Assembly (NCBI RefSeq): GCF_050920415.1
Contig: NZ_CP169309.1
DNA: 64,000 nucleotides
Source of the DNA: Escherichia coli
GTDB taxonomy: Bacteria; Pseudomonadota; Gammaproteobacteria; Enterobacterales; Enterobacteriaceae
Strand: one strand, 5' to 3'
Shown: one piece after another, positions 18,172 to 63,051 of the stretch
Layout: the number at the start of each line of letters is the position of its first letter
Position numbering within the stretch: position 1 is the stretch's first letter
Translations under genes and position numbers: made by a program
Notes under the pieces: model-generated
What the model saw: only the letters and a program-made list of their open reading frames with translations
Database searches by the model: none
What the model was told of the DNA's origin: nothing

Positions 18172-18193
18172 TAATAATTAATTTTCACTATTG

Positions 18194-18216
18194 TGAGGCC
18201 TTTTTATTAAAGGCCT
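18194..18216. terminator. Hairpin between the convergent methyltransferase and endonuclease genes (candidate bidirectional terminator)
   Basis: gaggccttt-ttatt-aaaggcctc: 9-bp perfect stem with 5-nt loop in an AT-rich spacer. Confidence 0.6.
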
Positions 18217-18257
18217 CTAAATATATAATCATGAGTTTTTACAAGTATGTTTTTATA

Positions 18258-21596: not shown

Positions 21597-24041
21597 ATGC
21601 CAACACCAAGCATCATCAAAACACTCGCCACCCACCGCGAAAAACCGTTCGTCAGCGTCGTCACGCCAACATGGAACCGCGGCGCATTCCTCCCGTACCT
21701 GCTCTATATGTACCGCTATCAGGACTACCCGGCAGACCGCCGCGAACTGGTCATCCTTGACGACTCGCCGCAAAGCCATCAACACATCATCGACCGCCTG
21801 ACCAATGGCACGCCGGAAGCCTTTAACATCCGCTACATCCATCACCCGGAAAAACTGCCGCTGGGAAAAAAACGCAATATGCTCAACGAACTGGCGAGCG
21901 GCGAATATATCCTCTGCATGGATGACGACGACTACTACCCGGCAGATAAAATCTCTTACACCATCGCCATGATGCAAAAACACCGGGCGCTGATCTCCGG
22001 TTCCGACCAGATCCCCATCTGGTACAGCCATATCAACCGCATCTTTCAAAGCCGCAGCTTTGGCCCGCGTAACATCCTCAACGGCACCTTTTGTTATCAC
22101 CGTAACTACCTGAAAAAGCACCGTTACAATGACGATTGCAATTTAGGCGAAGAGAAAAGTTTCACCGACAATTTCAGCGTAAACCCGCTGCAACTGCCCG
22201 GCGAGCGCACGATTTTGTGTATTTCGCATAGCCACAACACCTTTGATAAAGACTTTATTCTCGGGGCCAGCACGCCAGTAAACGCGGCGCTTACGGATAT
22301 CGTCACCGATCCGCTGCTCCGCAATGCTTATCTGAGTCTGCATAACGCCACGCATCACCAGGGGATCAACCATCAGGCGATCTATCAGATCGTTCTGCTG
22401 AATCTGGATAAACGCCCGGATCGTTTACGGCAGATCCGTGAAGAGCTGGCATTGCTGCATATTCCGCCTGAAAAAATTACCCGCCTTGCCGCCTGTGAAG
22501 ATGAAAACGGTCAACGGGGCCGCCGCCTGTCGCACTTGCAGGCGCTACGCCTGGCGCAACAGCACGGCTGGCAAAACTATCTGCTGCTGGAAGATGACGC
22601 GGTTATTCTCAAGCAGGAGAAACATATTCAGGTGCTGAACACGCTGCTGGCGAGCCTGGCGAAAATTCCCTGGCAGGTGATGATCCTCGGAGGCGAAATT
22701 TCGCAAGGAACAATGCTAAAAAGCCTGCCGGGGCTGGTGCACGCGCAGGACTGCCGCAAAGTGTGCGCTTATCTGGTGAACAGCCGGTACTACCCACAAC
22801 TGGCGCAGCAGATGAGTAACGATGAGCACTCGCTGGAAGACGGCTGGCAGCCACTGCTGCGTGCCGACAAATGGCTGGCCTGTTACCCGAGCCTTAGTTA
22901 TCAGCGACCGGGCTTTAGCGATATCGAGAAAAAAGCGACTGATAACATTAACCACTACTTCAATAAGTTACCCGTAGCCACCAAGCCATCTACATTACCT
23001 ATCGCCGACACCATCGGCTTTTTAATGGAAACCTCATTCCACTACGCGCTCTATCGCCCAATCATCACCGCTCTACAGGCGCAGGGGCAGAGCTGCACGC
23101 TGGTGATCAACGACCGCGTGTTTAAACCGTTTCTGGATGAAATGCTGGAGACGCTAAAAACCATCGACGATCCGCAGCTCAAAGGTATGCGCTTGTCTGA
23201 GATGCAGGCACACGGTCAGCGGGTGAAATGCCTGGTCAGCCCCTACCACACGCCCGCGCTCAATGGCCTGGCAGCGGTGAACATCCGCGCTATGTACGGC
23301 TTAGCCAAAGAAACGTGGAACCACGCCGACTGGAACCGTTTTTATCAGCGCATTTTGTGTTATAGCCACTACAGTCAGCAGGCGCTGGCGCATTTCGGCA
23401 GCGCAAAAGTGGTCGGCAATCCACGCTTCGACGCCTGGCATAACGGCACGTTCGACCGTGCGTTGCCGGAAAATATCCAACCAGATTACCGTAAACCTAC
23501 GGTGCTCTACGCCCCAACATTTGGCGCATTAAGCTCCCTGCCCCACTGGGCAGAAAAATTGGGCCGCTTAAGCGGTGATGTGAACCTGATTTGCAAACTG
23601 CACCACGGTACCTGCTCGCGCCCGGAAGAAGCCGCATCGCTGACCCTGGCACGCAGGCATTTAAAGCAGAGCACCGACTCCGCCCGTCACACGCTGGCGA
23701 TGCTGGCAAAAGCCGATTACGTGCTCACCGATAACAGCGGCTTTATTTTCGATGCTATCCACGTTGATAAGCGGGTGATCCTGCTCGACTTTCCGGGCAT
23801 GACGGAACTGCTCGACGGTGAGAAAAGTTATTCCACACCGGAGAGCGCCGACCAGCGAATCCGCGAAATATTACCGGTGGCTCATGATATGGCTGAGCTG
23901 CGTTACTTATTGTCAGAGGCGTTTGACTGGGGGGCGGTACAGGCGCGGCTTACGGAGATTCGCCATCACTATTGTGACGCGTTTATGGATGGCAAGGCGG
24001 GAGAACGGGCGGCGATGGTGGTTGTGGAGGCATTGGGGTAA
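21597..24041 (+). CDS. Large multidomain glycosyltransferase (GT2-like N-terminus, GT25-like centre, TagB/TagF-like C-terminus); candidate flagellin-modification enzyme
   Basis: N-terminus …VSVVTPTWNRGAFLPYLL…ILDDSP… (GT-A fold); central …LLNLDKRPDRL…LLEDDAVI… (GT25-like); C-terminus …YAPTFG…KLHH…VLTDNSGFIFDA… resembling CDP-glycerol glycerophosphotransferases. Start taken at ATG 21597; the ORF extends back to 21531 across repeat C. Confidence 0.65.
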   Translation: MPTPSIIKTLATHREKPFVSVVTPTWNRGAFLPYLLYMYRYQDYPADRRELVILDDSPQSHQHIIDRLTNGTPEAFNIRYIHHPEKLPLGKKRNMLNELASGEYILCMDDDDYYPADKISYTIAMMQKHRALISGSDQIPIWYSHINRIFQSRSFGPRNILNGTFCYHRNYLKKHRYNDDCNLGEEKSFTDNFSVNPLQLPGERTILCISHSHNTFDKDFILGASTPVNAALTDIVTDPLLRNAYLSLHNATHHQGINHQAIYQIVLLNLDKRPDRLRQIREELALLHIPPEKITRLAACEDENGQRGRRLSHLQALRLAQQHGWQNYLLLEDDAVILKQEKHIQVLNTLLASLAKIPWQVMILGGEISQGTMLKSLPGLVHAQDCRKVCAYLVNSRYYPQLAQQMSNDEHSLEDGWQPLLRADKWLACYPSLSYQRPGFSDIEKKATDNINHYFNKLPVATKPSTLPIADTIGFLMETSFHYALYRPIITALQAQGQSCTLVINDRVFKPFLDEMLETLKTIDDPQLKGMRLSEMQAHGQRVKCLVSPYHTPALNGLAAVNIRAMYGLAKETWNHADWNRFYQRILCYSHYSQQALAHFGSAKVVGNPRFDAWHNGTFDRALPENIQPDYRKPTVLYAPTFGALSSLPHWAEKLGRLSGDVNLICKLHHGTCSRPEEAASLTLARRHLKQSTDSARHTLAMLAKADYVLTDNSGFIFDAIHVDKRVILLDFPGMTELLDGEKSYSTPESADQRIREILPVAHDMAELRYLLSEAFDWGAVQARLTEIRHHYCDAFMDGKAGERAAMVVVEALG

Positions 24042-24049
24042 ACCGCAGA

Positions 24050-24152
<103 letters not shown>

Positions 24153-24367
24153 AACAGCGCACTTATCTACCCTTCGATTTTAAATACATCTCTTTATGGC
24201 TGGTGAATCGGTAAAGTCGTAGATTGTGGGGGAGCGATCTTTATGAATTCTGAAAAAACCCTGAATCTTGCTAAACATATTGCTTATCATAAATATAGGT
24301 TACACACTATAAAAATTACTGCGTAATTTAACATCTTGCCTAAAAATGATAGAGCGTAAACGATAAT

Positions 24368-25189
24368 ATGACTTCTGATAAAAAAGTAACTTCCGGTACG
24401 ACAAGCCAGAAACAAAACAACATTGTCACTCAAAAAATATCACGCCAGAAGGAATTGTTTCTATTATTTTGGGTTGATGAGTCCGATGATAGCCGACGTT
24501 CTATTTTTGAAGAAGCATGTCTGACGCGTTATTTCAATATCCTTTATTCCCCCGAGTATAAAAAAGAAACACAGATAGTTTATCATTTATCAATTAACAC
24601 ATTTAATCAAATCAAAGAAATATTAGAAATCTTTATAAACAAGAATGGAGGTAAAACTAAAGCAAAGGTTAAAGAAGTCAGTTTATTCTCACATGGGGGG
24701 CCAATTCATGGTCCTACAACCTCAAACTCTATAAATACACCTTCCGTGCCTAAATACCCACAACAAATGGACATATCCGGAGGATGGGATTCAATTGATT
24801 TTAACTGGTCAAACAATGCTATGTTTGTTATGTATGGTTGTCGCACTAGTTATGCAAGTGATGATTCAGGACAAGGTTTTGCCAGTAAATTATCCCTATT
24901 AGATAATTTTAAGGACGTGAATGTCTGGGGTCAAACAGAAAGTACTTATCCATCTTATTTCCCAGATATCAGGACAACGTCGATTATGAGGTCAATAAAT
25001 ATAGGTTGGTCTTTTTCACCAACATATATGGTTGCCAATTCTGAAGGTCAAGGATGGGATGCATTATTCCCGGATAATCGAAATCCATTAAAAGCTCTCC
25101 CTATGCAGTGTTATAATAATGGGACATTGATTTTAACCTGCGATCAAAGCAATTTTAATGATCACCGGAAGAATAAATCAAATGATTAG
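24368..25189 (+). CDS. Hypothetical protein with a caspase-like (clan CD peptidase-type) His…Cys dyad; AT-rich
   Basis: 273 aa; hydrophobic strand + SHG (VSLFSHGGP, His109) and, 49 residues later, hydrophobic strand + GC (AMFVMYGCRT, Cys158), the arrangement of caspase/CHAT-type catalytic dyads. Inferred by eye only. No signal peptide. Confidence 0.45.
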   Translation: MTSDKKVTSGTTSQKQNNIVTQKISRQKELFLLFWVDESDDSRRSIFEEACLTRYFNILYSPEYKKETQIVYHLSINTFNQIKEILEIFINKNGGKTKAKVKEVSLFSHGGPIHGPTTSNSINTPSVPKYPQQMDISGGWDSIDFNWSNNAMFVMYGCRTSYASDDSGQGFASKLSLLDNFKDVNVWGQTESTYPSYFPDIRTTSIMRSINIGWSFSPTYMVANSEGQGWDALFPDNRNPLKALPMQCYNNGTLILTCDQSNFNDHRKNKSND

Positions 25190-25721
25190 CATTGTATTGA
25201 GAAGCTTTATTTTATTATTCATAATAATAGTGTATCCGGATTATAATAAAAACCCACCTGCCTTTGAAGTATATGGGGAAAATGACATACTTAAGGATAT
25301 GGTTATTAATATGAAAACTTATAGATACCATAGTAAGGAAAACTCTTCCCCCACAGCTATAGTGCAAACCATCCTTTTTAAAGGAAATATACAGCAAGTT
25401 TTTGAAAGCAATGACATGGGTGGTGCGAGCTTCTTTTTTTCTTATAATAATAAGGTTGAAACGCTGGTAACAGACGCTTTCTTTTTAAATAAAAAATTAG
25501 ACAAACTGCATGATGCAAATATTTTTGAGGTTATAAAGCATAAGGAAAACATCGTTATTAGATATTACAAGTGCAAAATTGAATATATGCAAAGAGAAAA
25601 ATTTATCGAAATAGAGATATCAACAAACAAAAATAGTTATTTTAACAAGAATGGAATAAAACAAAAAGATACAAATAAATATAACACATATTTCTTCAAT
25701 TACTTTGAGTCTCAAAAATAA
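25158..25721 (+). CDS. Hypothetical small membrane-anchored protein, partner of the upstream gene; AT-rich
   Basis: 187 aa; N-terminal hydrophobic segment (ISIVLRSFILLFIIIVY), Lys/Asn-rich remainder; overlaps the upstream gene (alternative start 25182 gives an 8-nt overlap). Confidence 0.45.
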   Translation: MITGRINQMISIVLRSFILLFIIIVYPDYNKNPPAFEVYGENDILKDMVINMKTYRYHSKENSSPTAIVQTILFKGNIQQVFESNDMGGASFFFSYNNKVETLVTDAFFLNKKLDKLHDANIFEVIKHKENIVIRYYKCKIEYMQREKFIEIEISTNKNSYFNKNGIKQKDTNKYNTYFFNYFESQK

Positions 25722-25724
25722 ATT

Positions 25725-26129
25725 TTATTTTGTCATGCGCGCCCTCCTAATCACCTCAATAATCCCCGTCGTCGACACCGACGGCGTGCGGGGGAAATAG
25801 ACCACCTCACAAATATACGCGAAGCTATCAAACTTCCCTGCCCAGTCATCGCCCATCACCAAAACATCCGCACTGTACCCCCGCAGATATTCCGCTTTCT
25901 GCGCCAGCGATTCCTCGAGAAATACGCCATCCACGCACGCCAGCCCGGCGATAATCGCCATGCGGTCATCCTGAGGGTAAACCGGTGCCCTGCCCTTTTT
26001 GGCAATATTTAAGGCGTCGGACGACACGCCAACCAGCAGCCGTTCGCCCAGCGTGCGGGCGCGTTGTAAAAGGCGCAGATGACCGACATGAAACACATCG
26101 AAGGTGCCGAAGGTGATGACCGTTTTCAT
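25725..26129 (-). CDS. Cytidylyltransferase, TagD/glycerol-3-phosphate cytidylyltransferase-like
   Basis: Start at internal Met (MKTVITFGTFDVFHVGHLRLL…); HxGH nucleotidyltransferase motif; 134 aa; begins 3 nt after the fliJ stop. Confidence 0.75.
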   Translation of the reverse strand: MKTVITFGTFDVFHVGHLRLLQRARTLGERLLVGVSSDALNIAKKGRAPVYPQDDRMAIIAGLACVDGVFLEESLAQKAEYLRGYSADVLVMGDDWAGKFDSFAYICEVVYFPRTPSVSTTGIIEVIRRARMTK

Positions 26130-47464: not shown

Positions 47465-47700
47465 TTGGGGTATGACTACGAAAGCCCGCTCTCCTGCGAC
47501 CACTTTTATCATAGGAGTGTGGAAGTGCTTTTCCATCAATCGCGATGACGTCTTTGTCATCTGAAGAATGACATTCACGCATCCGGTTAATAAAGCATTC
47601 GTGAAATTATACTGAACGGATACAAGACATAACTCTAATTATGGTGCCGTGAACAGGATTACCATTTTCAAAATTACGATATTATTTGCAGTAATTATGT
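47465..47700 (-). mobile_element. Degenerate ISAs1-family (H-repeat) transposase remnant abutting the yafV 3' end
   Basis: About 80% nucleotide similarity by eye to 49396-49620; minus-strand translation …[26 protein letters not shown]… matches the transposase fragment at 49323-49781. Confidence 0.5.
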
Positions 47701-47706
47701 TATTAA

Positions 47707-48219
47707 TCATTGTGATATTTCCATCTCTGTGATTAATACCGGATACGCATTTAATTGCAGAGTTTGCACGAAATTATCGCAGATAACTGGCAATAACAAT
47801 AACCCATCAGCCCGCTGCTGTAATACCTCCATTCGTTCTACTGATTCAACATTAACAACCAAACCAAGGGCATTTAGCGATTTAAGGATCTCCAGATGTT
47901 CACTCATCCAGCGCAGAGAAAAAGGATCATCACCAATTATAAAAACAGGCCCCCAGCCGGTTAATAACTGGCGTTTCATTACGGAACCAGGATGAAGTCG
48001 AGTACATATTACAGGAAATACCCCCTGTTGCGATGGTTCCGATGATGTGGATAATTCAGAAATATTTTCCATTGTTAGTGAAGAATTAACATCCATTAAT
48101 AATGGTGAAACAACCTCACTTTCCTTGCTAGTAATGGCTGCACTAATCTGAGAGGAAAATAACAATATTATTACGTATAAACTCATTTTTAACATAACAA
48201 ATTCAATCCGTTTATTCAT
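47707..48219 (-). CDS. Hypothetical secreted/membrane protein, AT-rich
   Basis: 170-aa ORF with N-terminal hydrophobic signal-like segment (MSLYVIILLFSSQISAA); no assignable motif. Confidence 0.45.
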   Translation of the reverse strand: MNKRIEFVMLKMSLYVIILLFSSQISAAITSKESEVVSPLLMDVNSSLTMENISELSTSSEPSQQGVFPVICTRLHPGSVMKRQLLTGWGPVFIIGDDPFSLRWMSEHLEILKSLNALGLVVNVESVERMEVLQQRADGLLLLPVICDNFVQTLQLNAYPVLITEMEISQ

Positions 48220-48285: not shown

Positions 48286-48789
48286 TCATTGACCAATGTG
48301 AATTGGCAATGTACCACTCAAGTTAAAATCACTGAATATTTTATCAATTTCTCTTGCAGTTTCTATATATTTAACCTCTTTCGTACTTGCATTATAAATA
48401 GCCCAAGCCTCGGGATGGGATGTTCCACCAAACCTTACAAAAAAACTTGATTTCATATTATTATATAAATTAACATCAGGAAAAGGATCTTCTCCAAAAT
48501 TAGTAGTATTGAATAATGAAAGTTCGTATCGCTTAGAAAATTCTATTGGTAGGATAGCTTCACTGCCATCAATAGCATTCATCCAGAGTTTGTTACCATT
48601 ATATTCCAACAATAATCTCTGTTTTGCATGTGTTTTATCTCGTTCTTTAACGACAGCGAATACCTTTTTAACAACCTGCTGTGCGGATGGTCCTATTGTA
48701 TTACCAAAAGATGGCAACCCGATTTTGCCATAAACACTCTCCTGAATGAAATAAATATCCGTTTTATCGGCCTCGACAATATCTACCAT
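48286..48789 (-). CDS. Hypothetical cytoplasmic protein, AT-rich
   Basis: 167-aa ORF; no signal peptide; no assignable motif. Confidence 0.45.
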   Translation of the reverse strand: MVDIVEADKTDIYFIQESVYGKIGLPSFGNTIGPSAQQVVKKVFAVVKERDKTHAKQRLLLEYNGNKLWMNAIDGSEAILPIEFSKRYELSLFNTTNFGEDPFPDVNLYNNMKSSFFVRFGGTSHPEAWAIYNASTKEVKYIETAREIDKIFSDFNLSGTLPIHIGQ

Positions 48790-49101: not shown

Positions 49102-49781
49102 TTATGCTGCATTTCCTCTTCTTATTTTGAAGTCGTCTTTATTCATTACCACTTCCAGATGCCAGTGCAATTTATTCTCCACTTGCCAGTGATTTCGGTT
49201 CGCTGTGGCGAACTTCTCTGCGGTTAAATCAGCAGAAATGCTATAATATCTGACCGTCATTTCGGGATTTTTCTTTTGTTCTGCTATTATTGAGCGAAAT
49301 GAGACTGCCATGCATAATTTCTTCAGCCCTTTCCATTCAAACGTAAAATCAATAAATTCATCAGAGACATGCAAACAATATGAAGACGGATTTTAATGAC
49401 ATAAGTTGCTCCCTTGTGACGAGTTTTATCATAAGAGTGCCGGAGCGTTTTTCCATCAATTGCAATGACGTCTTTATCATCTGAAGAATGACATTCACGC
49501 ATCCGGTTAATAAAGCATTCGTGAAATTTTGCAGGACTGATACATGATACAACTCTGGCAATAGTATCGTGAACAGGAATACCATTTTCAAAATCACCAT
49601 ATTGCTTCAAAAAATCGAGATGAGTTTCCCCGAAATCCTCTATATCTTCCCAGCCTTCTGCACCCGAAATAACGGCGCAAATAGTCAACAGTAGAATATC
49701 CGATAATTTATGCTCCACTTTCCAGGCTTGTCTGTAATCGGGGATAATAGAAATATGTTCCATCAATTTTTTAAGTTCCAT
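49102..49781 (-). pseudogene. ISAs1-family (H-repeat-associated) transposase, internally deleted/frameshifted
   Basis: N-terminal 152 aa ([51 protein letters not shown]…) and a separate 90-aa C-terminal piece (…[30 protein letters not shown]) lie in different frames; the catalytic middle is missing. Confidence 0.7.
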
Positions 49782-49904
49782 TTTGTTCTCCTTAATTATG
49801 TAAGGAGTATTTGATCATGTATAAGCAATAAAAAACAGCTTCAGGTAATGAGGAATATCTCAATTTTTAAACATAAAATGCGAATTATTTAGTACAAAAA
49901 AGCA

Positions 49905-51796
49905 GCGTTAAGTGAGTAGGCCACCGGAACCTCCCCGACAGCCTCTCGCAGAACCGTACGTGAAACTCTCGCTTCATACGGCTCCCGTCAGGCAAACGCG
50001 CTTCCTGGTCCTGCTTTCCAGTGGGCAAACAACTCCGGCTTCTCTTTTGACAGCCTTTCCATTAGCTGACACGCCTTCGTCTTTCTATACCGCAGGGTTT
50101 TATATTTCTTTCTCGCCCACGCAATCAGCGTCAGATTAATATATCTGCATACTTTCTTCATCGCTGATTTGTGGTATCTCGCGTAATAATTCAGCCACCC
50201 CGATATTATCGGATTCAGCCACTTCGCAATATCTTCGAGACTCATCTCCACCCTGCGTCTGATCCACAGTTTCCTGAGTTTTCCAATCATGCCTTTCTGC
50301 GCACGGTTACTCGCCGCCGGGCTGAAACTCGTAAAGAGGTTTCCCCGCCGGTGGTTACGTGCTCTTCGCGCTCTGAACGTATACCCCAGAAAATCAAACT
50401 GCACTGTTTCATGGTTCGCCTGTCGTTCGCTGTCTTTGCAGTAAACTACTTTCGTTTTCTCCGGATGTAATTCCAGTCCACATTCCTGAAAACGTTTTGC
50501 CAGCTTATTCAGTAATTCCTCTGCCTGTTGTTTACTGCCACAATGAATTAATCCATCATCTGCATAACGGCACAGGGAATTTCCGGATAATGTAACGTCA
50601 GCCATTTATCAAACACATAGTGCAGAAATAAATTCGCCAGTACCGGGCTGATGACTCCACCCTGTGGCGTACCTTTATTTCTTTCCTTCAGTGTTCCATC
50701 CGGCATCTGCACCGGCGCTGTCAGCCACCGGCGAATAGACAGTCTTACCCATTTATCCGCACAATGTTTATCTACTGCCCTGAGTAATAAATCGTGGGAG
50801 ATATTATCGAATAACCCTTTAATATCAAACTCAAGACACCAGTCGTATTGCCAGCAACGTTTTCTGGTGACTGCTATTGCATCCAGCGCTGATTTTCCAT
50901 GCCGGTATCCGTATGAATCATTCAGGAAATAACGCTCCACTAATGGTTCAAACGTTACCAGCACCGTCATCTGCGCTATTCGATCGCTTACTGTCGGTAT
51001 TCCTAAAAGTCTTTTGCTGCCATCCTTCTTCGGAATTTCCACCGCACGCACTGGCGGCGGCATCCAGCTTCCCGACGATAACCTGTTCCAGATTTTGTAC
51101 AGATTTCCTTTCAGATCCCGCTCAAAATCTTTCAGCGTCTGGTTATCCACTCCGGCAGCTCCGGCATTCGCCTTTATCCGCCGGTACGCTTCCACCACAT
51201 GCAATTTACTGACCTGAAACGGTTTTGTCTGTTCACACACAGCCTCCTCCTGCCTACAGTTGGGCTGTGATGCAGACTGCCCGACGCTGTCCCTTCGCTC
51301 CACGTTCATTACAAACGCTTCCTCACTACTACGAACAGCTCTGCCCCGGTTTCGCACATCGATACTCTCATACTCATAATTTCGGTTATTTGTATTTCTC
51401 TCTTGAAATTGCGACGACCGGTTCCCGTAGTTCCTGCAAAGAGCCTGATACAGCGTCATGCCTGCTATACACCGGACACCATTCACGCAGCATTCGGAAT
51501 TCACCCGTAAATTAATCCCGGCGGTATCACGAAACCTCCGGTTTTGATGTCACTTAGGACTAACGACGTTTCAACACAGGTTCGGGTTTACTCATCTCAC
51601 TGTATCTCACATAGGATCAGATCTCGTCTGATCGTTCCCCCTGCGCTCACTACCATGGCTCTTTACCACAGCAGCCGGGGTTGTTTGGGACCGACTTCCG
51701 ACAGCAGATCCCGGTGGGCCTGCCACCATCTCTTCACAAGCTTATGCTTATTACATGCAAAACGTCCCGTTTTGCATCTTTGTGCCTACGGCACAC
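49905..51796 (-). mobile_element. Bacterial group II intron (about 1.9 kb)
   Basis: 5' end GTGTG on the minus strand (complement of cacac at 51792-51796); RT/maturase ORF; domain V-like hairpin gagccgtatgaagcgagagtttcacgtacggttc (complement of 49951-49984) just after the ORF stop. 3' boundary is approximate. Confidence 0.65.
49988..51309 (-). pseudogene. Group II intron reverse transcriptase/maturase, frameshifted
   Basis: RT motifs (…GIPTVSDRIAQ…, …TPQGGVISPVLANLFLHYVFD…) in ORF 50548-51504; YADD and maturase domain X (…GWLNYYARY…) in ORF 49988-50605. The two parts are in different frames. Confidence 0.7.
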
Positions 51797-51843
51797 GATG
51801 ATCTTTCCCTGATTACTTGACCTTTCCCTGGGAGTACAGAGTG

Positions 51844-51893
51844 AAGTTTCCGGCATGGCGGGATGCGGATGGGTTTGAACTGGGGTGATTAGG
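51844..51893 (+). repeat. Duplicate of the yafV 3' terminus (direct repeat of 47381-47432)
   Basis: aagtttccggcatggcgggatgcggatg identical in both copies (28 bp), with decaying similarity over the next ~20 bp; second copy would encode …[14 protein letters not shown]. Confidence 0.7.
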
Positions 51894-51942
51894 CACTACA
51901 TGTCTACATTTTCCCGGTCTCCAACCCCTCAATCTTATAAAC

Positions 51943-54042
51943 TTAACCTCGGCTCACCGTTTTCGATTCCATCCAATAAATGACCCGGTTGGATGTGGGC
52001 TGATCGCCAACAACTTTGCCATCTGCAGAGATTAGCTTCAGCTCTTTATTAGCCTCATCACCGAAGTAAATCATGCGGTAGCGAAAATAACCGCCCCAGG
52101 GTTCGCGTCCACCCAGCGAACTTTGCATAAACCAGGCGCGGGAGTCGTGAACCTGGTCATCATAGAGAGCCAGTAATTCAGCGCAGGGCTGAGTTCGCGT
52201 TCGCGTTCCCGTTCCCAGTGAATCAATAAAAAATTGTGGATAGAGTCCGTTTCCCATAGCCTTAATTTGTTGATATTCCTTTGCTTCATCATCGCCATTA
52301 ATCAGATACACCGGATATTTAGGAATGACATCCACAAGAATCTGAATGGCTTTCTCCGTGACGCTGCCGTTAATATCGCGCGTCCATCCTTTATAATCGC
52401 TCTGAAATTCTCGGGCTGCCTCTCGCAATTGGTACTGAGCGTTCGTCGGGTCAAGGATAGGTATGCCCTGATTACTTTCATCAAGTGTGCCATTGCCTTT
52501 CTGCGTGTTCGCCCGCTCTTTTTCGATATTTTCCATTTGTTCTTCGCGCGCTTGGGCCTCTTTATCAAGTCCATCTTTATCCAGCTGTGGCGCCTTAATA
52601 TAAAAAGGTTGCACAAGAAGGCTGTTGTTCGCATAGCGACCGATACGCCAGGCGGTGATCCAGCCGATCTGATCGCTAATTGCGCTTTCAAGAACCTGGG
52701 CAAGTTGATAGGGGTGATAACCTTCCCTCGTATCAATCATTTCTTCTGTACCCTGCAAGGTGGTGTTCAGCAGCGTTTGTCGCCAGATGTTGAAGCGTTT
52801 TGTTAATGAATTAGCAATCGTAAATTCCTTTACGCTAGAAGGACTCATAATTCGCAGAGGCGACACACCTTTTATTAATGGAGTAACAAATTTAGAATAA
52901 ACAGCAAGTGGTGCTCCTGAATCAAATGCAGCAAGATACATATCATGCAGGGCTATCTGAGAAAGAATTTCGCCTGAGTCACCACAGGACTTCCCCTGAT
53001 CGCGAACGGGATAGCCACCACCGACATCAGAGTGCATCCCCGGATAGATAACTTCCTCTGCATATAAAGGATAATTGCCTTCAGGACGACGGATTGAATC
53101 CAGCGGAAAGCACAACCGCTGTTCATGCGCAGCGACGAAGTGGCGGCAGCATTTAATCAGGCCGGGAAACTGCGTCTCATCAGGGAGTTGCTGAGTACTA
53201 TCGGCCCATCCCATATGACCGGCTGCGCCCGGTAAAACATGCGCCGCCCCCACAGAAGCTACGGTATCCAGCAGCCCCAAAAACTCAATACTGACAGCTA
53301 AACCGGCCAGCATCACCTGTTGCCTCTGCGGGCAAGCTAACTGAGTCAACCAGTTAACAAAAGTTCGTGCTTCCGCTGCGCCACGGGAAAATCCGTAGAT
53401 AAACAGCCTTACGTTTAGCAGGCGCGGACTAGCTTGTTCTAACTGTCCCTGTAATTTTTCCAGGTAGGGGTTAATCACATTGCGACGATTCACTTCACCA
53501 GTCATCGGCCAAGGAGCACGCATAAGAGGAATGTGCTCTTTTGCCACCTTCTCATTCAGTCCATTTTGGGTTGGGTCAATAGCATAGCTAAGGGCATCCA
53601 CGAGACGTAATAATGCCCAATTAATTCGGTCTTCACCACCGGTGGCAAATTCCAGTCCGCTGTTGCTGTAATCCATTTCACCTATCTTGGGAAATGGTGT
53701 GCCTACACCAGGTATGTAATAGGAAAAATACCCAGCATTACGGTCTTTAATACTTGCGTGGAATAATTTCGCAATATTGGTTGGATGAGAGGCTTTTGTG
53801 TCATTATATTCATTATTATTTGTACCATCAAAAAACAGACTAATATGCAGACTTTGACTACATGTAAAGCCAATTCTAAATCCAGCCTGTTTACTACAGT
53901 TGGTTTTGTGCTCCTCTGTTTTATTGATTTGTTTCAGGTAGTTCGCGTTTACCTGCGCTTCAGATAATATTAATCGCCCATCTTCAGGGAACACCGGGGG
54001 GGCATAACACGGAAAAGCCAGACCACTTATTTCGCTGGACAT
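51943..54042 (-). CDS. tle1: Type VI secretion phospholipase effector, Tle1-family (DUF2235 alpha/beta hydrolase)
   Basis: Start at internal Met (MSSEISGL…), 699 aa; N-terminal …LFFDGTNNN… motif and GxSxG nucleophile elbow (IYGFSRGAAEA) characteristic of Tle1/DUF2235. Confidence 0.75.
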   Translation of the reverse strand: MSSEISGLAFPCYAPPVFPEDGRLILSEAQVNANYLKQINKTEEHKTNCSKQAGFRIGFTCSQSLHISLFFDGTNNNEYNDTKASHPTNIAKLFHASIKDRNAGYFSYYIPGVGTPFPKIGEMDYSNSGLEFATGGEDRINWALLRLVDALSYAIDPTQNGLNEKVAKEHIPLMRAPWPMTGEVNRRNVINPYLEKLQGQLEQASPRLLNVRLFIYGFSRGAAEARTFVNWLTQLACPQRQQVMLAGLAVSIEFLGLLDTVASVGAAHVLPGAAGHMGWADSTQQLPDETQFPGLIKCCRHFVAAHEQRLCFPLDSIRRPEGNYPLYAEEVIYPGMHSDVGGGYPVRDQGKSCGDSGEILSQIALHDMYLAAFDSGAPLAVYSKFVTPLIKGVSPLRIMSPSSVKEFTIANSLTKRFNIWRQTLLNTTLQGTEEMIDTREGYHPYQLAQVLESAISDQIGWITAWRIGRYANNSLLVQPFYIKAPQLDKDGLDKEAQAREEQMENIEKERANTQKGNGTLDESNQGIPILDPTNAQYQLREAAREFQSDYKGWTRDINGSVTEKAIQILVDVIPKYPVYLINGDDEAKEYQQIKAMGNGLYPQFFIDSLGTGTRTRTQPCAELLALYDDQVHDSRAWFMQSSLGGREPWGGYFRYRMIYFGDEANKELKLISADGKVVGDQPTSNRVIYWMESKTVSRG

Positions 54043-54584
54043 GTTGCAGGTTCCTTCATCTCGCGGGGTTCTTTGATAGGATAATTTGGTGTACCATATT
54101 TCTGGCAGACGGTTGTCACTTTTATCTGATTGCACGATAGAAAATGAACGGTCAGGCCACAAAGCTCAGCATCGTATTCCGGGATATCAACAATTACTTT
54201 ATATTTTTGATAATTTGCAGCATGTTTAGCATACGCATCTTCTTCATAGCCAAAACCTTCTTTTTTCATTGCAATAGGTTCAAGGGGGTTCGGGTCTACT
54301 TCCCACTCAATCCGGGCCTTTAATCCCACACGCCACTTATCTGGCAGCATAACGCAACAATATCCTCCACCGTCCCCGAATGGAGAAATATTTGGCCCAC
54401 CGTAACCATTGATGTGTAAATAATTTATAGCCTTATCCGTATGATTTATCCCATTAATATCCACAGCAGTGTAATCTCTGCTATTTTTTGCCATTGAACA
54501 GCCTGATACTGCAAATAAAATCATTAGAGAATAACATTTGAAAATCGCTCTCATACTGATACTTTTCCTTATTTCGCTGGACAT
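54027..54584 (-). CDS. Lipoprotein, putative Tle1 immunity protein (Tli-like), tandem copy 3
   Basis: 185 aa; lipobox (…LFAVSGCSMA…); paralogous to the two upstream copies, with a divergent central segment. Confidence 0.7.
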   Translation of the reverse strand: MSSEIRKSISMRAIFKCYSLMILFAVSGCSMAKNSRDYTAVDINGINHTDKAINYLHINGYGGPNISPFGDGGGYCCVMLPDKWRVGLKARIEWEVDPNPLEPIAMKKEGFGYEEDAYAKHAANYQKYKVIVDIPEYDAELCGLTVHFLSCNQIKVTTVCQKYGTPNYPIKEPREMKEPATCPAK

Positions 54585-55123
54585 GTTGCAGGTTCCTTCA
54601 TCTCACGGGGTTCTTTGATGGGATAATTCGGTGTGCCATAACCCTCGCAGACGGTTGTCACTTTTATCTGATCGCATGGCAGAAAATGTACGGTCAGGCC
54701 ACAACGTTCAGCGCCGTATTCCGGGATATCAACAATTGTTGAATATTTTCTAAAACTGTTTAGCGCAACTTTCTTCCATGCTTCAAATTTCTCCCTGTCC
54801 ACATAACCTGGAGGCAGAGGAGCTGTATTTGGATCAACCTCCCACTCAACCCGGGCTTTTAATCCAGAATGCCACTTATCTGGCAACATAACACAACAAT
54901 ATCCTCCACCGTCCCCGAATGGAGCAATATTTGGACCACCGTAACCATTGATGTGTAAATAATTTATAGCCTTATTCGTATGATTTATCCCGTTAATATC
55001 TCCAGCAGTGTAATCACCGCTATTTCTCGCCATTGAACAGCCTGATACTGCAAATAAAATCATTAGAGAATAACATTTGAAAATCGCTCTCATACTTATA
55101 CTTTTCCTTATTTTGATGGACAT
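54569..55123 (-). CDS. Lipoprotein, putative Tle1 immunity protein (Tli-like), tandem copy 2
   Basis: 184 aa; lipobox; near-identical N- and C-terminal thirds to copies 1 and 3. Confidence 0.7.
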   Translation of the reverse strand: MSIKIRKSISMRAIFKCYSLMILFAVSGCSMARNSGDYTAGDINGINHTNKAINYLHINGYGGPNIAPFGDGGGYCCVMLPDKWHSGLKARVEWEVDPNTAPLPPGYVDREKFEAWKKVALNSFRKYSTIVDIPEYGAERCGLTVHFLPCDQIKVTTVCEGYGTPNYPIKEPREMKEPATCPAK

Positions 55124-55662
55124 GTTGCTGGTTCCTTCATCTCGCGGGGTTCTTTGATGGGATAATTTGGTGTACCATATTTCTGGCAGACGGTTGTCAC
55201 TTTAATCTGATTACACGTTAGAAAATGAATCGTCAGGCCACAAAGCTCAGCATCATATTCCGGGATATCAACAATTGTTGAATATTTTCTAAAACTGTTT
55301 AGCGCAACTTTCTTCCATGCTTCAAATTTCTCCCTGTCCTTATTGCCTGGAGGCAGAGGAGCTGTATTTGGATCAACCTCCCACTCGACCCGGGCTTTTA
55401 ATCCAGAATGCCACTTATCTGGCAGCATAACGCAACAATATCCTCCACCGTCCCCGAATGGACCAATATTTGGTCCGCCGTAACCATTGATGTGTATATA
55501 ATTTATAGCCTTATCCGTATGATTTATCCCGTTAATATCCACAGCAGTGTAATCACCGCTATTTTTCGCCATTGAACAGCCTGATACAACAAATAAAACA
55601 ATTAGAGAATAACATTTGAAAATCGCTCTCATACTTATACTTTTCCTTATTTTTCTGGACAT
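55108..55662 (-). CDS. Lipoprotein, putative Tle1 immunity protein (Tli-like), tandem copy 1
   Basis: 184 aa; lipobox (…LFVVSGCSMA…); 16-nt overlaps link the three copies head-to-tail. Confidence 0.7.
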   Translation of the reverse strand: MSRKIRKSISMRAIFKCYSLIVLFVVSGCSMAKNSGDYTAVDINGINHTDKAINYIHINGYGGPNIGPFGDGGGYCCVMLPDKWHSGLKARVEWEVDPNTAPLPPGNKDREKFEAWKKVALNSFRKYSTIVDIPEYDAELCGLTIHFLTCNQIKVTTVCQKYGTPNYPIKEPREMKEPATCPSK

Positions 55663-55975
55663 GTTGCAGGTTCTTTTACTTTGAGAGATTTTAATTGATG
55701 GGTGTTATTTCTACGACAACAAAGTTTTGACAAAGAAGCAAATAAAATGCATATCTTTTGATTGTCACACATTGGAATATCGACAGAGCATTGATGATAT
55801 TACGCAAAATATATTGCAGCCAAGTGAACTGACATTACGATCGAACACAAATGCAACATGATGGATACTACCATTACATGTCGAGCTTGATTTTCCGCTT
55901 ATTTTACGATTATCTCTTGATATTAACAGCTACGGACTTTTAAACAGATAAATCTCCCCGTACATCACTACAATA

Positions 55976-56740
55976 TTATCCTTCGAAGTCCCGCAAAGCT
56001 CCAAAATATTTCGCGTCATTGGCCCTGAAAGCAATATCAAGACAGTGGGCAAAATAGCTTTCCTGACTGAGTTCACTGACTGCTTTTTCCTTCATCAGGG
56101 CTTCAGCGTCGCAGATACAGCCCATCAATCCCACCTGTACATCATCCACCCGATTCATCTCCGGGTTGTCAGTAAGCCTGCGTTCTGGTGAAAAACTTCC
56201 TGATTTCCAGTTAATCTCTCCATCACGGTCTAACCAGCTCCAGAACAACGCAATATCAGTAAATGTCGCCTGCTGCTCGTTGGTCAAAACATGTGTGAAC
56301 AGCAAAGGGAACACCCGATTATCATAGTAACGCAGCAATCCGGTCTGTTCTTCCCACTGAACCTGTGACAATACCTGAAGATGCCGCCCCAGCAGGTCGA
56401 ATGTAAGAGGGGATATCAACAAAGTAAGACGCGGCGTATCAGCAAATGACGCCATCAGTTGCGCCAGAAATTTGCGATGACTACTGAGCGCAAAGTACAG
56501 GCGTAACACTACAGGGGAATACTCCATCGTCTCAGCTTCAGGCGTTCCTTCAAACAGGGCATACCAGTGAATGGCTGGCGACAGATGAAGCATATCATTT
56601 TGCAAAGGTTGGTCTGTTCCAGCCTGGTCAACAAGCACATCTATGTAATCCAAACCAGCGGCAGAACAGAATGATTCAGTCTGCTTCAGCCAGATAATAT
56701 ATTTGTCTTGATCGGTAGCGTGTGGCGATACTGTTATCAT
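55976..56740 (-). CDS. DUF4123-like type VI effector adaptor/chaperone, putative
   Basis: 254 aa, directly downstream of vgrG; …LLRYYDNRVFPLLF… resembles the DUF4123 (R/Y)FYDPRV signature as I recall it. Confidence 0.5.
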   Translation of the reverse strand: MITVSPHATDQDKYIIWLKQTESFCSAAGLDYIDVLVDQAGTDQPLQNDMLHLSPAIHWYALFEGTPEAETMEYSPVVLRLYFALSSHRKFLAQLMASFADTPRLTLLISPLTFDLLGRHLQVLSQVQWEEQTGLLRYYDNRVFPLLFTHVLTNEQQATFTDIALFWSWLDRDGEINWKSGSFSPERRLTDNPEMNRVDDVQVGLMGCICDAEALMKEKAVSELSQESYFAHCLDIAFRANDAKYFGALRDFEG

Positions 56741-56752
56741 TGTCTTTCTCCC

Positions 56753-57447
56753 TTATCCACGAGGCGCAAAAGCGGCGGCGGCTTCCTGCGCCCTTTTCAG
56801 GCACTCCTTACACACCGATTTTTCTGGTGCTTCCTCATCCTCATCGTTGTTATCATTCTGATCGGACGACGCATTACTGTCATTTTGCTCAGCCGCTAAA
56901 CTTTTATCATCTGCCAGCGCTTTCAAAACCGCCGGTTGTAGCGTCGGCACCGGCGTTCCCGGACTACCGCCGCTATTGAGATTGATTTTCGGCCCGACGA
57001 TGTCCACGCCCCCTGAATGGATGACCACAAACGAACCACCCACCTTCAGGGTGATTTTACCGCCACTCTCCAGTACGATTTCATCCCGGACCTTCATTCC
57101 CAGCGCACCGGTAATCTTCCTCGCCAGGTCGCCCTTCACCTCCAGACTGTGCTTTCCCTCCACCAGACTGATATGGTTCCCCGTCGTCTTATGCTCCTGC
57201 TTCCCTTCCACCGTCACTTTACGGTCGTTTCTGACATACAGGCCGTCATCGTGACTCACGCTCACCGTCCGGTCATTCGTCACCTTCAGCGTCTGGTCAT
57301 TACGTACCGTTATGCGCCGGTCGTTCGCCACCGTGATACTCTGGTCGTGGCCCCCTTCTTTTCTGGTGCCGACCTCAACCGTCTGCCCCTTCACCACCCT
57401 TATCTTCTGGTCGTTACCGATGGTCTCCGTATGGTCATGCTTCACGT
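56753..57447 (-). pseudogene. vgrG: vgrG, C-terminal part (gene interrupted by an IS21-family insertion)
   Basis: 230-aa frame with VgrG beta-helical repeats (…ITVANDRRITVRNDQTLKVTNDRTVSVSHDD…); in frame with the N-terminal part once the IS and one target-site duplication copy are removed. Confidence 0.8.
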
Positions 57448-57547
57448 GTCAGCGCCAATGATATAAGACAGTAATTCACCATTTGGATTGTCCGCTCCAC
57501 CCAACATGTTGTTTCCTTAAGGTTCCTACACCACAAAGGGAACACTC

Positions 57548-59569: not shown

Positions 59570-61111
59570 CACGTCCGTCGTCCGGTCGTTAAGCACCTCC
59601 GTGTCCATGTTCTTCTGCGCGTGGATATACACCTGCTCACTGTCCGTCGCATCCTCGAAACGCAGTTCATTAAAGCCGCTTCCTTTATAGGTCTTCGAGC
59701 GGATGGTCATCTGCGTCCGCGTGCCCGGTAAATCCCCCGGTGAACGGTTGTCTTCATGGTAGGTCCGCCCCGTCACAATGGGCTGGTCCGGGTCGCCGTT
59801 CAGAAAGTCCACTATCACTTCCTGACCCACACGCGGTATCGCCAGATTGCCGAACCCCGGTCCCGCCCATGCCTGCGACACCCGTATCCAGCATGAACTC
59901 TCCTCCGTCATCCCGTGATAACGGTCCCAGTGAAACTTCACCCGTACCCGGCCATGTTCGTCGCAGAATATCTCCTCGCCCTTCGGCCCGGTCACGATGG
60001 CACTCTGCGGGCCGTCCACCTTCGGCTTCGGCAGCGGCGCGTGACGCCACGTCCTGTCCGCCGGTATCACCTCAAACTGATTGCTCAGCGTCGTTCCCTC
60101 GCCGTGACTCCCGTGCAGCGCCTGCGGCTGTTCTCCCCGCAGTGTGCTTCCCACAACCTGCCATTCCCGGTTCAGCGTCCCTGAGGGATGGCCCGTCAGC
60201 CGGAACCGCGTTCCCGGCCACAGTCGCGCCGTGTTACACACCCCGCTCGCCGTCTCCGCCCCGTTCCGCCACCCTTCCGTCTGGTAACGCGCAAAGTCCT
60301 GGCCGTGCTGCTCATCCTTGAAACGCCCCGGATAATCAAATATCTCGTACTGCGTTCCCTGCCCGTTCAGGCTCTCCCCGGCATGGCTGTAGTACCCCGG
60401 CCACCCCGGCGTTTTGAACATATAATCCTGCGTCTCCACCGACGCCACGCTTATCTGCGCACGGTAACGAAACTCGCTGATGTACTCCGTCGTTCCCCCG
60501 GTCGTCGTGTCCGGGTTAAACGCCAGCGCCCCCATTCCCGTCAGCCCCGCCACGTCATCACACACCGCCAGCTTCTGTTCCGGCCCTTCCTGACTGCAGC
60601 GCTCATAAAAGAAGATACCTTCCTCCGCCCACAGCCGGGTCAGGAACGCCAGGTCGCTCTCCCCGTACTGCACGCAGAACTCCCGCGCCGGGTGCGCCTC
60701 ATAGAACAGCGGCATCCACGCCGTCACCCCGTTCTCTTCAAGAAGCTGTGCTGATATCGTCTGAATGTCCTGCTGCTGGAAGATACGGAAGTTCTGCCGT
60801 AACCCTGCCCGCCACAGCGGCGGGCTGATGCTCAGGGAATAACGCATCTGCCAGTCGTTGTTCTCACCGAGCTGCACCTCCGTCACGATACCGCTGACGT
60901 AACGCTGTGCAGTGTCGCCCTGCCAGACCGTCAGCAGCGCGCTTTTCTCCAGAAAATCCTCCGCCGTCAGGTCAGACAGTCCGCTGGCGATATCCACATC
61001 CAGGATGAACGGTGTGCAGTGGTGCTGGTACAGACGGAAGCTCACCACTGCCGTCGCCATCTCCACAATACCGTCCACCGACAGCGTGAAACGTAATCCT
61101 TCTGAGGACAT
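59570..61111 (-). pseudogene. vgrG: vgrG, N-terminal part (gp27/gp5-like spike domains), interrupted by the IS21-family element
   Basis: N-terminal 514 aa with VgrG features (MSSEGLRFTLSV…, …YIHAQKNMDTEVLNDRTTDV); the 561-aa ORF runs on into IS-derived sequence. Confidence 0.85.
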
Positions 61112-61327
61112 ATGACCTCCCTTGATTCACTTACAGAACACTGGTTGTCTACTGACCATGCAGCAGAGGGTGCCAGTACAGCGTTACGCTCATATTCAGG
61201 TACGCTACCGCCCGGGTTCCCGGCATCCACCATCTCCCTCATGAAAGCGTAACTCCTTACTGACACTCATTTTTTACACGTACAAAAACAACATCCTGCA
61301 CTAAGGCAGGATGTTGTTGACTCAGAT

Positions 61328-61846
61328 TTATGCTTCCAGCGGTGCACGCCAGTCATCGGCACCAGAAGTACCGGATTTGATGTGCTCCCACTCAACCTTA
61401 CGGTAGGCCAGTGATACTGCGAGCAATTGCGTAAACTCACGCTGTGCAGGGTCCTGGCAGTGCGGCATATGCAGGTTCATGTCCACAATCGTCGCGTCAG
61501 TAAGACGTGTGGTGAAGTAGTGCTCCTGCTTGCCTTCAACAGAGGTACGCCACCAGTGCAGCTCCACTTTCGGCAGCATTTCACCGGAGGCCAGCGCGTT
61601 GTACAGCAGCGGAACGGCTTTGTTCAGCGCCACGGTGAAAATGAACGGTTTGTGAGCACGCTGCCCGGAAGGCTGACCAGACTGCGGATCGGTTGGAACA
61701 GTAACGTTATGCAGAAACTCCTGCACCAGCATTTCATCTTCGTGTCCCTGCACGTAGATATTGCCGACAGAATCTGCGGTGAAAGCACCGGCAGTGATGT
61801 TCCCCTGGGTCTGACCTGTAATTGAAATGTAACATGGGGTTGGCAT
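61328..61846 (-). CDS. hcp: Type VI secretion tube protein Hcp
   Basis: 172 aa; N-terminus MPTPCYISITGQTQG… and overall size typical of Hcp. Confidence 0.9.
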   Translation of the reverse strand: MPTPCYISITGQTQGNITAGAFTADSVGNIYVQGHEDEMLVQEFLHNVTVPTDPQSGQPSGQRAHKPFIFTVALNKAVPLLYNALASGEMLPKVELHWWRTSVEGKQEHYFTTRLTDATIVDMNLHMPHCQDPAQREFTQLLAVSLAYRKVEWEHIKSGTSGADDWRAPLEA

Positions 61847-62547
61847 TTATGAACTCCTTGTGAAATTATCAACTGCTGTTTTACGAACAACCCGTCGTTA
61901 ATCCCCGACAGGTTAGAGTGTGATGCGGCTCACATCAGGAACCACACCCTTTTCTTTATTCGAGTTACAGGCACACGTAATTAGCACCTACCGAAAAACT
62001 CTTTTATGGTGTTTAAATATATTTTTAGTCAATTTCAGAACACGGTCACATAAGCTAAAAATATATCAACATCAACAGTAGAATTATCCATAACGTATCC
62101 TTACCCCCATAAAAACCTACAATTTCGTCAAAAATCAATTATTACAACACTTACTTCACCATCGTTCCGGCACGCAATTAAGATATTCCTTAAAGAAATT
62201 TCTTATGATGTATTGCTAGCAATTAATTAATTTATAAAACCATACATAAAACTTATTAATCAATTTAATAAACACATATAAATCAATATGTTATGGCGCT
62301 TTATTGGCCGTAAAATTATATTCGCCAAGTCTATAAATACCAAATTGATTTCACTATCATGTATTAATAATGAAGGATACATCTCTTTCAAAAATATAAA
62401 TAGTTCTTTTAATATTTTATTTCACGAGTAGAATACCGATCACAACAGAAGGAAGGTTACATTATCTAACTGCCACTGAAACGGTATTGTCGGTATTTGT
62501 ATGCAGTACGAAAATGCTGTGCTCATGGCCTGAACGGGAACATTTTT

Positions 62548-63051
62548 ATGAGCAAAATGAACAACAATGGCGGCAGTGTCGCGCCGAAAGAAAGAATCAG
62601 CGTTCGGTATACACCAAAAGTTGATGGGGTGGCTGCTGATATCGAATTGCCGCTGAATTTATTGATCACCGGCAATCTGAAAGGGAAACCAGATAACACG
62701 CCGTTGGATGAGCGAACTGCCATTGCTATCAACCGCTATAACCTCAACGCAGTCATTTCAGAAGCTGACATTGAACGGGAGTTTGTTGTTCCGGCTGAAC
62801 TCAGTGACGCACCCAATGAGCAAATGTACGTCAACCTGAAAGTCAAATCTATGGATGACCTTTCTCCTGACCATATTGCCAGCCAGGTACCAGAAATAAA
62901 ACGTCTGCTCGAATTGCGTGAAGCCCTGGTCGCACTTAAGTCTCCACTAGGCAATATTCCGGCCTTCCGCGCACAACTTCAGGCGCTACTGGAAAACGAA
63001 GACAGCCGCGAGCAGCTGATCCAGGAACTGGGTATCGCCGTTCAGAAATAA
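62548..63051 (+). CDS. tssB: Type VI secretion sheath small subunit TssB (VipA-like)
   Basis: Start at internal Met (MSKMNNNGG…), 167 aa; conserved TssB core (…ELPLNLLITGNL…). Confidence 0.85.
   Translation: MSKMNNNGGSVAPKERISVRYTPKVDGVAADIELPLNLLITGNLKGKPDNTPLDERTAIAINRYNLNAVISEADIEREFVVPAELSDAPNEQMYVNLKVKSMDDLSPDHIASQVPEIKRLLELREALVALKSPLGNIPAFRAQLQALLENEDSREQLIQELGIAVQK

Follow-up and report, generated by a model that had tools for sequence, protein, structure and literature searches.

The window analysed here is a stretch of 64,000 nucleotides (nt) from Escherichia coli (RefSeq assembly GCF_050920415.1, contig NZ_CP169309.1), in which a phospholipase effector gene, tle1, is directly preceded by three tandem lipoprotein genes, tli1. 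With a probability of about 0.88, we read this locus as a standard type VI secretion system (T6SS) cargo-effector module, of the Pseudomonas/Klebsiella type and with the order (hcp)-vgrG-tla1-tli1 x3-tle1. The tla1-tli1-tle1 architecture is of an already catalogued, published kind, and curated hidden Markov models name its parts. What is mildly new is that E. coli harbours a second lineage of Tle1 and that its immunity array is clearly mosaic by segment.

Composition of the tle1 module

A listing of open reading frames (ORFs) between 46 and 64 kb placed hcp, an interrupted vgrG, tla1, three tli1 genes and tle1 in this order on one strand, so that tle1 has hcp, vgrG, tla1 and the three tli1 genes all directly upstream. 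The features are given below, with window coordinates, strand and supporting evidence; protein lengths are in amino acids (aa).

61328..61846, minus strand: hcp (TssD tube protein), at the head of the hcp-vgrG-effector operon; NCBIfam TIGR03344, 209 bits, cut-off 58.9
59570..61111, minus strand: vgrG 5' part, about 513 codons, severed by an insertion sequence (IS); TIGR03361, 582 bits
57447..59569, plus strand: IS21-family element in vgrG, with a frameshifted istA and with istB; RefSeq annotation of a near-identical record, junction sequences
56753..57446, minus strand: vgrG 3' fragment, C-terminal domain, the expected dock for Tla1/Tle1; RefSeq, partial gp5-domain protein
55976..56740, minus strand: tla1, DUF4123 adaptor/chaperone, 254 aa; NCBIfam NF053803 Tla1 equivalog, 222.2 bits, cut-off 200
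55108..55662, minus strand: tli1 copy A, lipoprotein of 184 aa, alpha cassette; NF053804 Tli1a_fam, 206.8 bits, cut-off 110
54569..55123, minus strand: tli1 copy B, lipoprotein of 184 aa, alpha cassette; Tli1a_fam 211.9 bits, Pfam DUF3304 (PF11745) E=2e-29
54027..54584, minus strand: tli1 copy C, lipoprotein of 185 aa, N1-type 5' part with beta cassette; Tli1a_fam 209.2 bits, segment identities
51943..54042, minus strand: tle1, Tle1-family phospholipase effector, 699 aa; Pfam PF09994 and PF22137, PDB 4O5P E=3e-120
53996..54002, minus strand: poly-C tract (C7), in frame, 40 nt into tle1 (codons 14-16); sequence comparison between strains
49901..51796, minus strand: group II intron, outside the module, ltrA frameshifted; Rfam RF01999 93 bits, RF00029 63 bits

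The initial annotation of this locus had named a Tle1-family (DUF2235) phospholipase as the effector, an assignment that is supported by the Pfam domains and by alignment with 4O5P, the P. aeruginosa Tle1. PF09994, the catalytic domain, gave two separate matches (E=8e-14 and E=4e-8), the C-terminal (membrane-anchoring) domain PF22137 was matched with E=1.5e-56, and the alignment with the P. aeruginosa protein extended over residues 12-680. The motifs GFSRG (residues 217-221, with Ser219), LDTVA (Asp259) and HSDVGGG (His337), from which the residues of the catalytic triad were assigned, are identical in P. aeruginosa Tle1. A longer ORF of 739 aa from TTG 54162 was rejected as tle1; most of the related E. 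coli records place the start at the ATG at 54042. We retained this start because the 16-nt junction between copy C and tle1 holds both the copy C stop and the tle1 ATG. In the window, where tle1 is intact, as in most E. coli loci, the poly-C tract near this start has seven residues; strains MFDS1022581 and 33F4 have six (C6) and STEC299 has eight (C8), lengths that leave the tle1 ATG out of frame. Such length variation may represent a long-read homopolymer error or a genuine slipped-strand on/off switching of the toxin.

The adaptor predicted upstream of the array was recovered as a DUF4123 Tla1 above its equivalog cut-off. Its gene starts 13 nt past the vgrG stop and sits between vgrG and the effector gene. 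The spacer between tla1 and the first tli1 (55663-55975) is AT-rich and 313 nt long, a length shared by most of the E. coli loci that were fetched; in 2017-02-2CC, A32 and STEC299, tla1 and the first annotated tli1 are about 467-573 nt apart.

The lipoproteins had been proposed to be immunity proteins, and their identification as Tli1-type proteins is supported by the Tli1a_fam and DUF3304 matches. Membership in an unrelated family is excluded by the scores of the three copies (206.8, 211.9 and 209.2 bits), which all lie above the curated Tli1a_fam cut-off. Among the models reported at E<=0.01, Tli1a_fam was the only one, and the window copies did not match the Tli1-KP naming model. A regular-expression search together with inspection revealed the same N-terminus in all three copies: a basic N-region, a hydrophobic stretch, the sequence …LFAVSGC with the lipobox Cys29, and Ser at position +2. 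As there is no inner-membrane retention signal, the E. coli sorting rule predicts that the three copies are outer-membrane lipoproteins. A methionine just past the lipobox Cys, Met31, is invariant among them. An alignment of 79 Tli1 homologues contained six invariant cysteines besides that of the lipobox, consistent with a periplasmic domain held by disulfide bonds.

The AlphaFold2 model of copy C (predicted local distance difference test, pLDDT, 84.8) displays a beta-sandwich with an N-terminal helix at 3-27. In this model, the segment that differs between tli1 types (the central cassette, see below) forms a well-ordered loop (98-114) and a short helix (115-122), with a pLDDT of 95-97, after a conserved beta-hairpin (71-97). 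This hairpin probably corresponds to the "prominent loop 69-92", the main contact in the published model of P. aeruginosa Tle1-Tli1a, a mapping that is approximate since it was made from domain coordinates. A search of the PDB with the Tli1 sequence returned no match at E<=1, and a Foldseek comparison of the Tli1 model with the PDB returned nothing at E<=0.001.

By analogy with characterised systems, Tle1 would be a Ser-Asp-His phospholipase that the DUF4123 adaptor Tla1 would load at the C-terminal end of VgrG, the spike protein. The effector would then be fired into the periplasm of neighbouring cells and degrade their membrane phospholipids there. The three Tli1 proteins, as periplasm-facing outer-membrane lipoproteins with a disulfide-rich beta-sandwich, would bind and neutralise incoming or self Tle1.

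Five observations weigh against this interpretation of the locus. In the commonest E. coli arrangement the first tli1 copy is frameshifted, and therefore some copies may be dispensable. The start chosen by the Prokaryotic Genome Annotation Pipeline, Met1 or Met11, varies among the three window copies. A promoter and terminator scan of 51700-57500 performed no better than on shuffled sequences, and the two weak sigma-70-like matches in the tla1-tli1 spacer were at chance level. In P. aeruginosa, co-production of Tli1a failed to rescue E. coli from periplasmic Tle1, and protection rests there on binding and genetics (PMC13133936). Finally, our literature search found no paper on a module of the P. 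aeruginosa/K. pneumoniae type in E. coli, nor an experiment on this module.

Segmental mosaicism of the tli1 array

The array consists, as initially described, of three head-to-tail lipoprotein paralogs linked by 16-nt overlaps between the adaptor gene and the phospholipase gene, and the lengths of the proteins on the minus strand are 184, 184 and 185 aa. Each junction, ATGTCCAnnnAAATAA, combines the stop of one gene with the ATG of the next, and this includes the copy C stop and the tle1 ATG. A repeat search revealed direct repeats with a start-to-start spacing of 539/539 nt in the 5' part and 542/539 nt in the 3' part, the unit being repeated three times at about 90% nucleotide identity across about 480 nt, far above chance. 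Tandem Repeats Finder did not detect the array because its longest period, 500, is below the 539-nt unit. All three window copies are intact in their ORFs, lipoboxes and cysteine patterns.

Both peptides quoted in the initial annotation exist: copy B contains YVDREKFEAWKKVALNSFRKYS and copy C contains MKKEGFGYEEDAYAKHAANYQKYK. Alignment of the paralogs showed that a central segment does diverge, as had been noted, but that it does so only in copy C: the central cassettes of copies A and B are identical at 29/31 positions, whereas that of copy C differs (12/35). Beyond the cassette, protein identity among the copies is 89-91%, which makes them highly similar rather than near-identical as had been claimed.

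The tli1 genes of 12 E. coli loci proved to be mosaics of two N-terminal types, three central cassettes and two C-terminal variants. The N-terminal types were called N1 (MRAIFKCYSL…) and N2 (MNITKVVKGCLVL…), and the cassettes alpha (…DREKFEAWKKVALNSFRKYS), beta (…MKKEGFGYEEDAYAKHAANYQKYK) and gamma (…DWDKYQAWEKKLKESYIQHT). Nucleotide identity is 31-63% between cassette types and 96-99% within each type across strains, a degree of conservation that points to discrete old alleles and not to a hypervariable region. The beta cassette resembles the family consensus A.HKA.YQ.HS.IV of the 79-homologue alignment.

Copy C is, on the evidence of these comparisons, a recombinant: a divergent, older N2/beta paralog whose 5' part was overwritten by N1-type sequence. 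This follows from the cassette of copy C being 98-99% identical in nucleotides to those of MS1170 copy 3, 33F4 and FDAARGOS_944 copy 2, while the 5' parts of the same genes are 60% identical to that of copy C. The 5' part of copy C is instead 91-92% identical to those of copies A and B. Flanks homogenised to 86-100% surround an old cassette that is still in place. The central-only divergence of copy C is thus best explained as the footprint of partial gene conversion, rather than of targeted diversification.

These data show that the copies are built of three independently assorting segments, namely a 5' part, a central cassette of about 100 nt and a 3' part. The array expands and contracts through unequal recombination between the 539-bp repeats, with copy numbers of 1, 2 or 3 in E. 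coli, and copy C arose by gene conversion that retained the old beta cassette within homogenised flanks.

Distribution, vgrG disruption and the number of tli1 copies

In a survey of 5,426 complete E. coli genomes, the 4.8-kb module matched 70 (about 1.3%), always on the chromosome. A tle1 gene was found in 71 genomes (in 70 at >=90% identity) and tli1 in 68, at 179 places, with a median and a maximum of 3. The two genome counts agree, and orphan tli1 arrays in E. coli lacking tle1 are therefore not indicated, as far as genome counts and listed rows, rather than full set membership, were compared. Three copies are the usual state, as in NC101, M-17, NGF1 and MS1170; one copy is present in A30, 33F4 and PapRG-04-4, and two in FDAARGOS_944 and FEX669. 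One tli1 copy elsewhere in E. coli is disrupted by IS1. RefSeq labels near-identical loci, in E. coli N96 and others, as tla1, tli1a (three times) and "T6SS phospholipase effector Tle1-like". Homology searches also retrieved contigs of Kluyvera, Pantoea, Enterobacter, Hafnia and metagenomes on which a Tle1 relative is accompanied by two or three DUF3304 proteins. With copy C as the query, tblastn located 13 separate DUF3304 places on the 71-kb Enterobacter asburiae plasmid NZ_CP074178.1, and NZ_CP074172.1 was listed alongside. Such an array of immunity genes far exceeds the three of the window.

The vgrG gene of the window is interrupted after about codon 513 by the IS21-family element, which measures 2,123 bp, has the ends TGTCA…TGACA and is bordered by a 4-bp target duplication, CGTG. 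In MS1170, whose vgrG is intact (coding sequence at nt 757-2988 of the locus), the counterpart of hcp and the first ~1,540 nt of vgrG is nt 1-2297, where the alignment stops at window position 59571. The 3' fragment aligns from nt 2294 through the vgrG end at 2988, and the match continues into tla1. Because the element splits vgrG, delivery of Tle1 by its own spike is doubtful, and in this strain improbable, while the immunity genes are intact. Identity to MS1170 is 84% for hcp and the vgrG 5' part (59571-61863) and 95% for the vgrG 3' end and tla1 (55941-57447). In A30, 33F4, PapRG-04-4, FDAARGOS_943 and FDAARGOS_944, all that is left of this vgrG before tla1 is a 345-nt remnant of its 3' end, which follows a different vgrG-M35 peptidase module. 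From the step between 84% and 95% and from the remnant in these five strains, the exchange unit seems to comprise the vgrG C-terminus, the adaptor, the immunity genes and the effector.

The surroundings of the module include the flanking genes yafV, ivy and fadE. The closest RefSeq relative, MFDS1022581, is 99.93% identical over 18 kb (7 mismatches and 5 indel events with 6 indel bases). Together with the flanking genes, this identity assigns the window to the chromosome of E. coli. The window departs from it upstream of 61127, beyond the vgrG start: hcp and then a divergently transcribed tssB-like gene (62497-63051) follow in the window, and a second vgrG, a Tae4 amidase, PAAR and an M23-like peptidase in MFDS1022581. 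The group II intron lies 146 nt 3' of the tle1 stop, with D1-D4 at 51610-51727, D5/D6 at 49911-49986 (Rfam) and ltrA between them; compared with MFDS1022581, one nucleotide is missing at 50574, which divides ltrA into two ORFs. MS1170 lacks the intron at the corresponding site. The interval from the T6SS locus to yafV holds two low-GC ORFs flanked by decayed transposase fragments of the ISAs1 family (at 49102-49781 and at about 47487-47682); of these ORFs, 47707-48219 is a member of the PFL_4695 integrating-conjugative-element protein family and 48286-48789 had no match in a family search. GC content dips to 0.37-0.38 at 17000-19000 and 24000-26000, compared with about 0.55-0.59 nearby.

Why the array holds three copies can be read in several ways. 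To the reading that the copies are functionally redundant we give slightly less than an even chance: they would stem from unequal crossing-over, as dosage or neutral duplication, and be homogenised by conversion while decaying at the edges, with cassette differences that are functionally meaningless. Copy number varies from 1 to 3 among close relatives, the first copy is a pseudogene in the commonest arrangement and another copy is disrupted by IS1, and PAO1 tli1b is likewise a proposed pseudogene. The homogenised flanks around a persisting old cassette, the 13 DUF3304 places on the Enterobacter plasmid and the four 94%-identical copies in Klebsiella also agree with redundancy. However, neutral redundancy is expected to produce more decay than is seen, since the cassettes are well conserved across strains and the window's three copies are all intact.

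The initial annotation had suggested that the array confers immunity to several variants of Tle1, competitors' variants included. In this account the three copies diverged against different Tle1 variants, one being cognate and the others "extra" copies directed at competitors, with the central cassette setting specificity; we consider it unlikely. The existence of three discrete cassette types, each conserved at 96-99%, argues for the maintenance of each by selection, and the cassette is an ordered loop and helix placed right after the hairpin that probably matches the main Tle1-contacting element of the P. aeruginosa Tli1a model. The published P. aeruginosa interface, however, mainly involves this conserved loop and not the cassette, again with the approximate mapping given above. 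The E. coli Tle1 proteins, which share 91-100% identity, are mosaic as well: their variation is clustered in patches at 83-108, 155-170 and 376-415, and the last of these aligns with residues 438-446 of P. aeruginosa Tle1, a modelled Tli1a contact, which makes it the best point for co-evolution. In V. cholerae, two Tli proteins of 80% identity protect differently, as cited in PMC13133936.

Against this account, no pairing between cassette and Tle1 allele was observed in the 12 E. coli loci, and each cassette type can be the sole intact tli1 beside an apparently intact tle1. The Tle1 83-108 allele "PGHP…TTYQNAEEQ" occurs with gamma only in A30, with alpha as the only intact copy in FEX669 and with beta only in PapRG-04-4. 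A correlation of this allele with the gamma cassette among the first seven loci was discarded when five more broke it, with PapRG-04-4 carrying beta only and 2017-02-2CC carrying alpha/beta/beta. Moreover, MS1170 and FEX669 have Tle1 proteins that are 99.9% identical, with and without a beta copy, respectively; copies A and B share one cassette; and the genome counts (68 for tli1 versus 70-71 for tle1) give no hint of orphan arrays. The single-copy loci all lie behind a truncated vgrG remnant, and pressure from self-intoxication may therefore be relaxed in them, which is a caveat on the pairing comparison. The data are accounted for no less well by redundancy, combined with continuing duplication, conversion and decay, than by protection against Tle1 variants.

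A bolder idea, in which the array is a recombination-driven immunity workshop whose segments, shuffled by gene conversion within the array and from strain to strain, yield new Tli1 specificities that track the mosaic patches of Tle1, with the poly-C tract switching the toxin alone, strikes us as improbable. A second, intracellular role of Tli1, in which a cytosolic form made from an internal start at Met31 would activate or stabilise Tle1 before export, is very improbable: Met31 is kept in all three window copies but not present in N2-type E. coli copies (…SGCSAANYDDY). Its precedent is Enterobacter cloacae, in which a cytosolic form of an unrelated Tli is needed to activate Tle (bioRxiv 10.1101/2023.03.28.534661; PMC11470151). 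Counting further against this role, the Tli of that species consists of ankyrin repeats and is not known as a DUF3304 protein.

As a textbook T6SS effector-adaptor-immunity unit, the locus has little significance beyond its correct annotation. It does indicate that E. coli, NC101 and M-17 included, has a second Tle1 system of the P. aeruginosa/K. pneumoniae type, apart from the Tle1/Tli1 of enteroaggregative E. coli (EAEC), and the tli1 array provides a clear natural case of segmental mosaicism with copy-number change. The module is often severed from a working vgrG: here the IS21 element splits the gene, and the five strains named above keep only its 345-nt remnant. Immunity may thus outlive the weapon. 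If it is true that cassette type sets specificity, these strains would constitute a ready panel for mapping Tle1-Tli1 recognition.

Comparison with known systems

Comparison with characterised Tle1/Tli1 pairs, which the initial annotation had called for, yielded a match to the PAO1 and K. pneumoniae types and none to the EAEC type. The window shares with the Sci-1 Tle1-Tli1 pair of EAEC 17-2/042 (Flaugnatti et al. 2016; PDB 6SJL) the species, the DUF2235 GxSxG superfamily and an outer-membrane lipoprotein as immunity protein. In contrast, window Tle1 matches 6SJL over 137 residues at E=2.5e-7 and belongs to a different sub-lineage. EAEC Tli1 is a DUF2931 protein encoded downstream of tle1, whereas the window proteins are DUF3304 and encoded upstream, and EAEC Tle1 docks directly on the TTR domain of VgrG without a DUF4123 adaptor, which the window has (PMC13133936). 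With upstream DUF3304 immunity genes, an adaptor and a weak, partial similarity to 6SJL, assignment to the EAEC type was rejected.

Tle1BT/Tli1BT of B. thailandensis (BTH_I2698/I2699), likened here by description, resembles the window in having tle1 with several adjacent immunity paralogs; a deletion of BTH_I2699-2703 was used there as the "immunity mutant" (PMC4868534). Unlike the window, the Burkholderia locus has a second tle1 paralog.

K. pneumoniae HS11286 carries four tandem tli1KP genes upstream of tle1KP, for which immunity and T6SS-dependent killing were demonstrated (PMC5649205), and DUF3304 is the commonest domain downstream of vgrG in Klebsiella (PMC12469244). Both this locus and the window have an array of highly similar immunity lipoprotein genes right upstream of a DUF2235 tle1 in a T6SS cluster. 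The genes annotated as Tli1-KP, however, are about 37-40% identical to the window copies, in the same Pfam family but a different named subfamily. Furthermore, a uniform identity of 94% was reported for the K. pneumoniae copies (PMC5649205), for which a divergent cassette like that of the window is not described.

In PAO1, the island is vgrG4a-tla1-tli1b-tli1a-tle1 (PA3294-PA3290); the outer-membrane lipoprotein Tli1a binds Tle1, Tla1 connects Tle1 with the C-terminus of VgrG4a, and tli1b is the proposed pseudogene referred to above (PMC13133936). The window differs in the size of Tle1 (699 aa versus 884 aa in PAO1), in its three intact tli1 copies against one functional copy and one proposed pseudogene, and in the IS-disrupted vgrG of this strain; 16-nt overlapped junctions and cassette mosaicism are described for the window only. 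The gene order and the four families, VgrG, DUF4123 Tla1, multi-copy DUF3304 Tli1 and DUF2235 Tle1, are the same in both, and a beta-sandwich fold is predicted for Tli1 in PAO1 as in the window.

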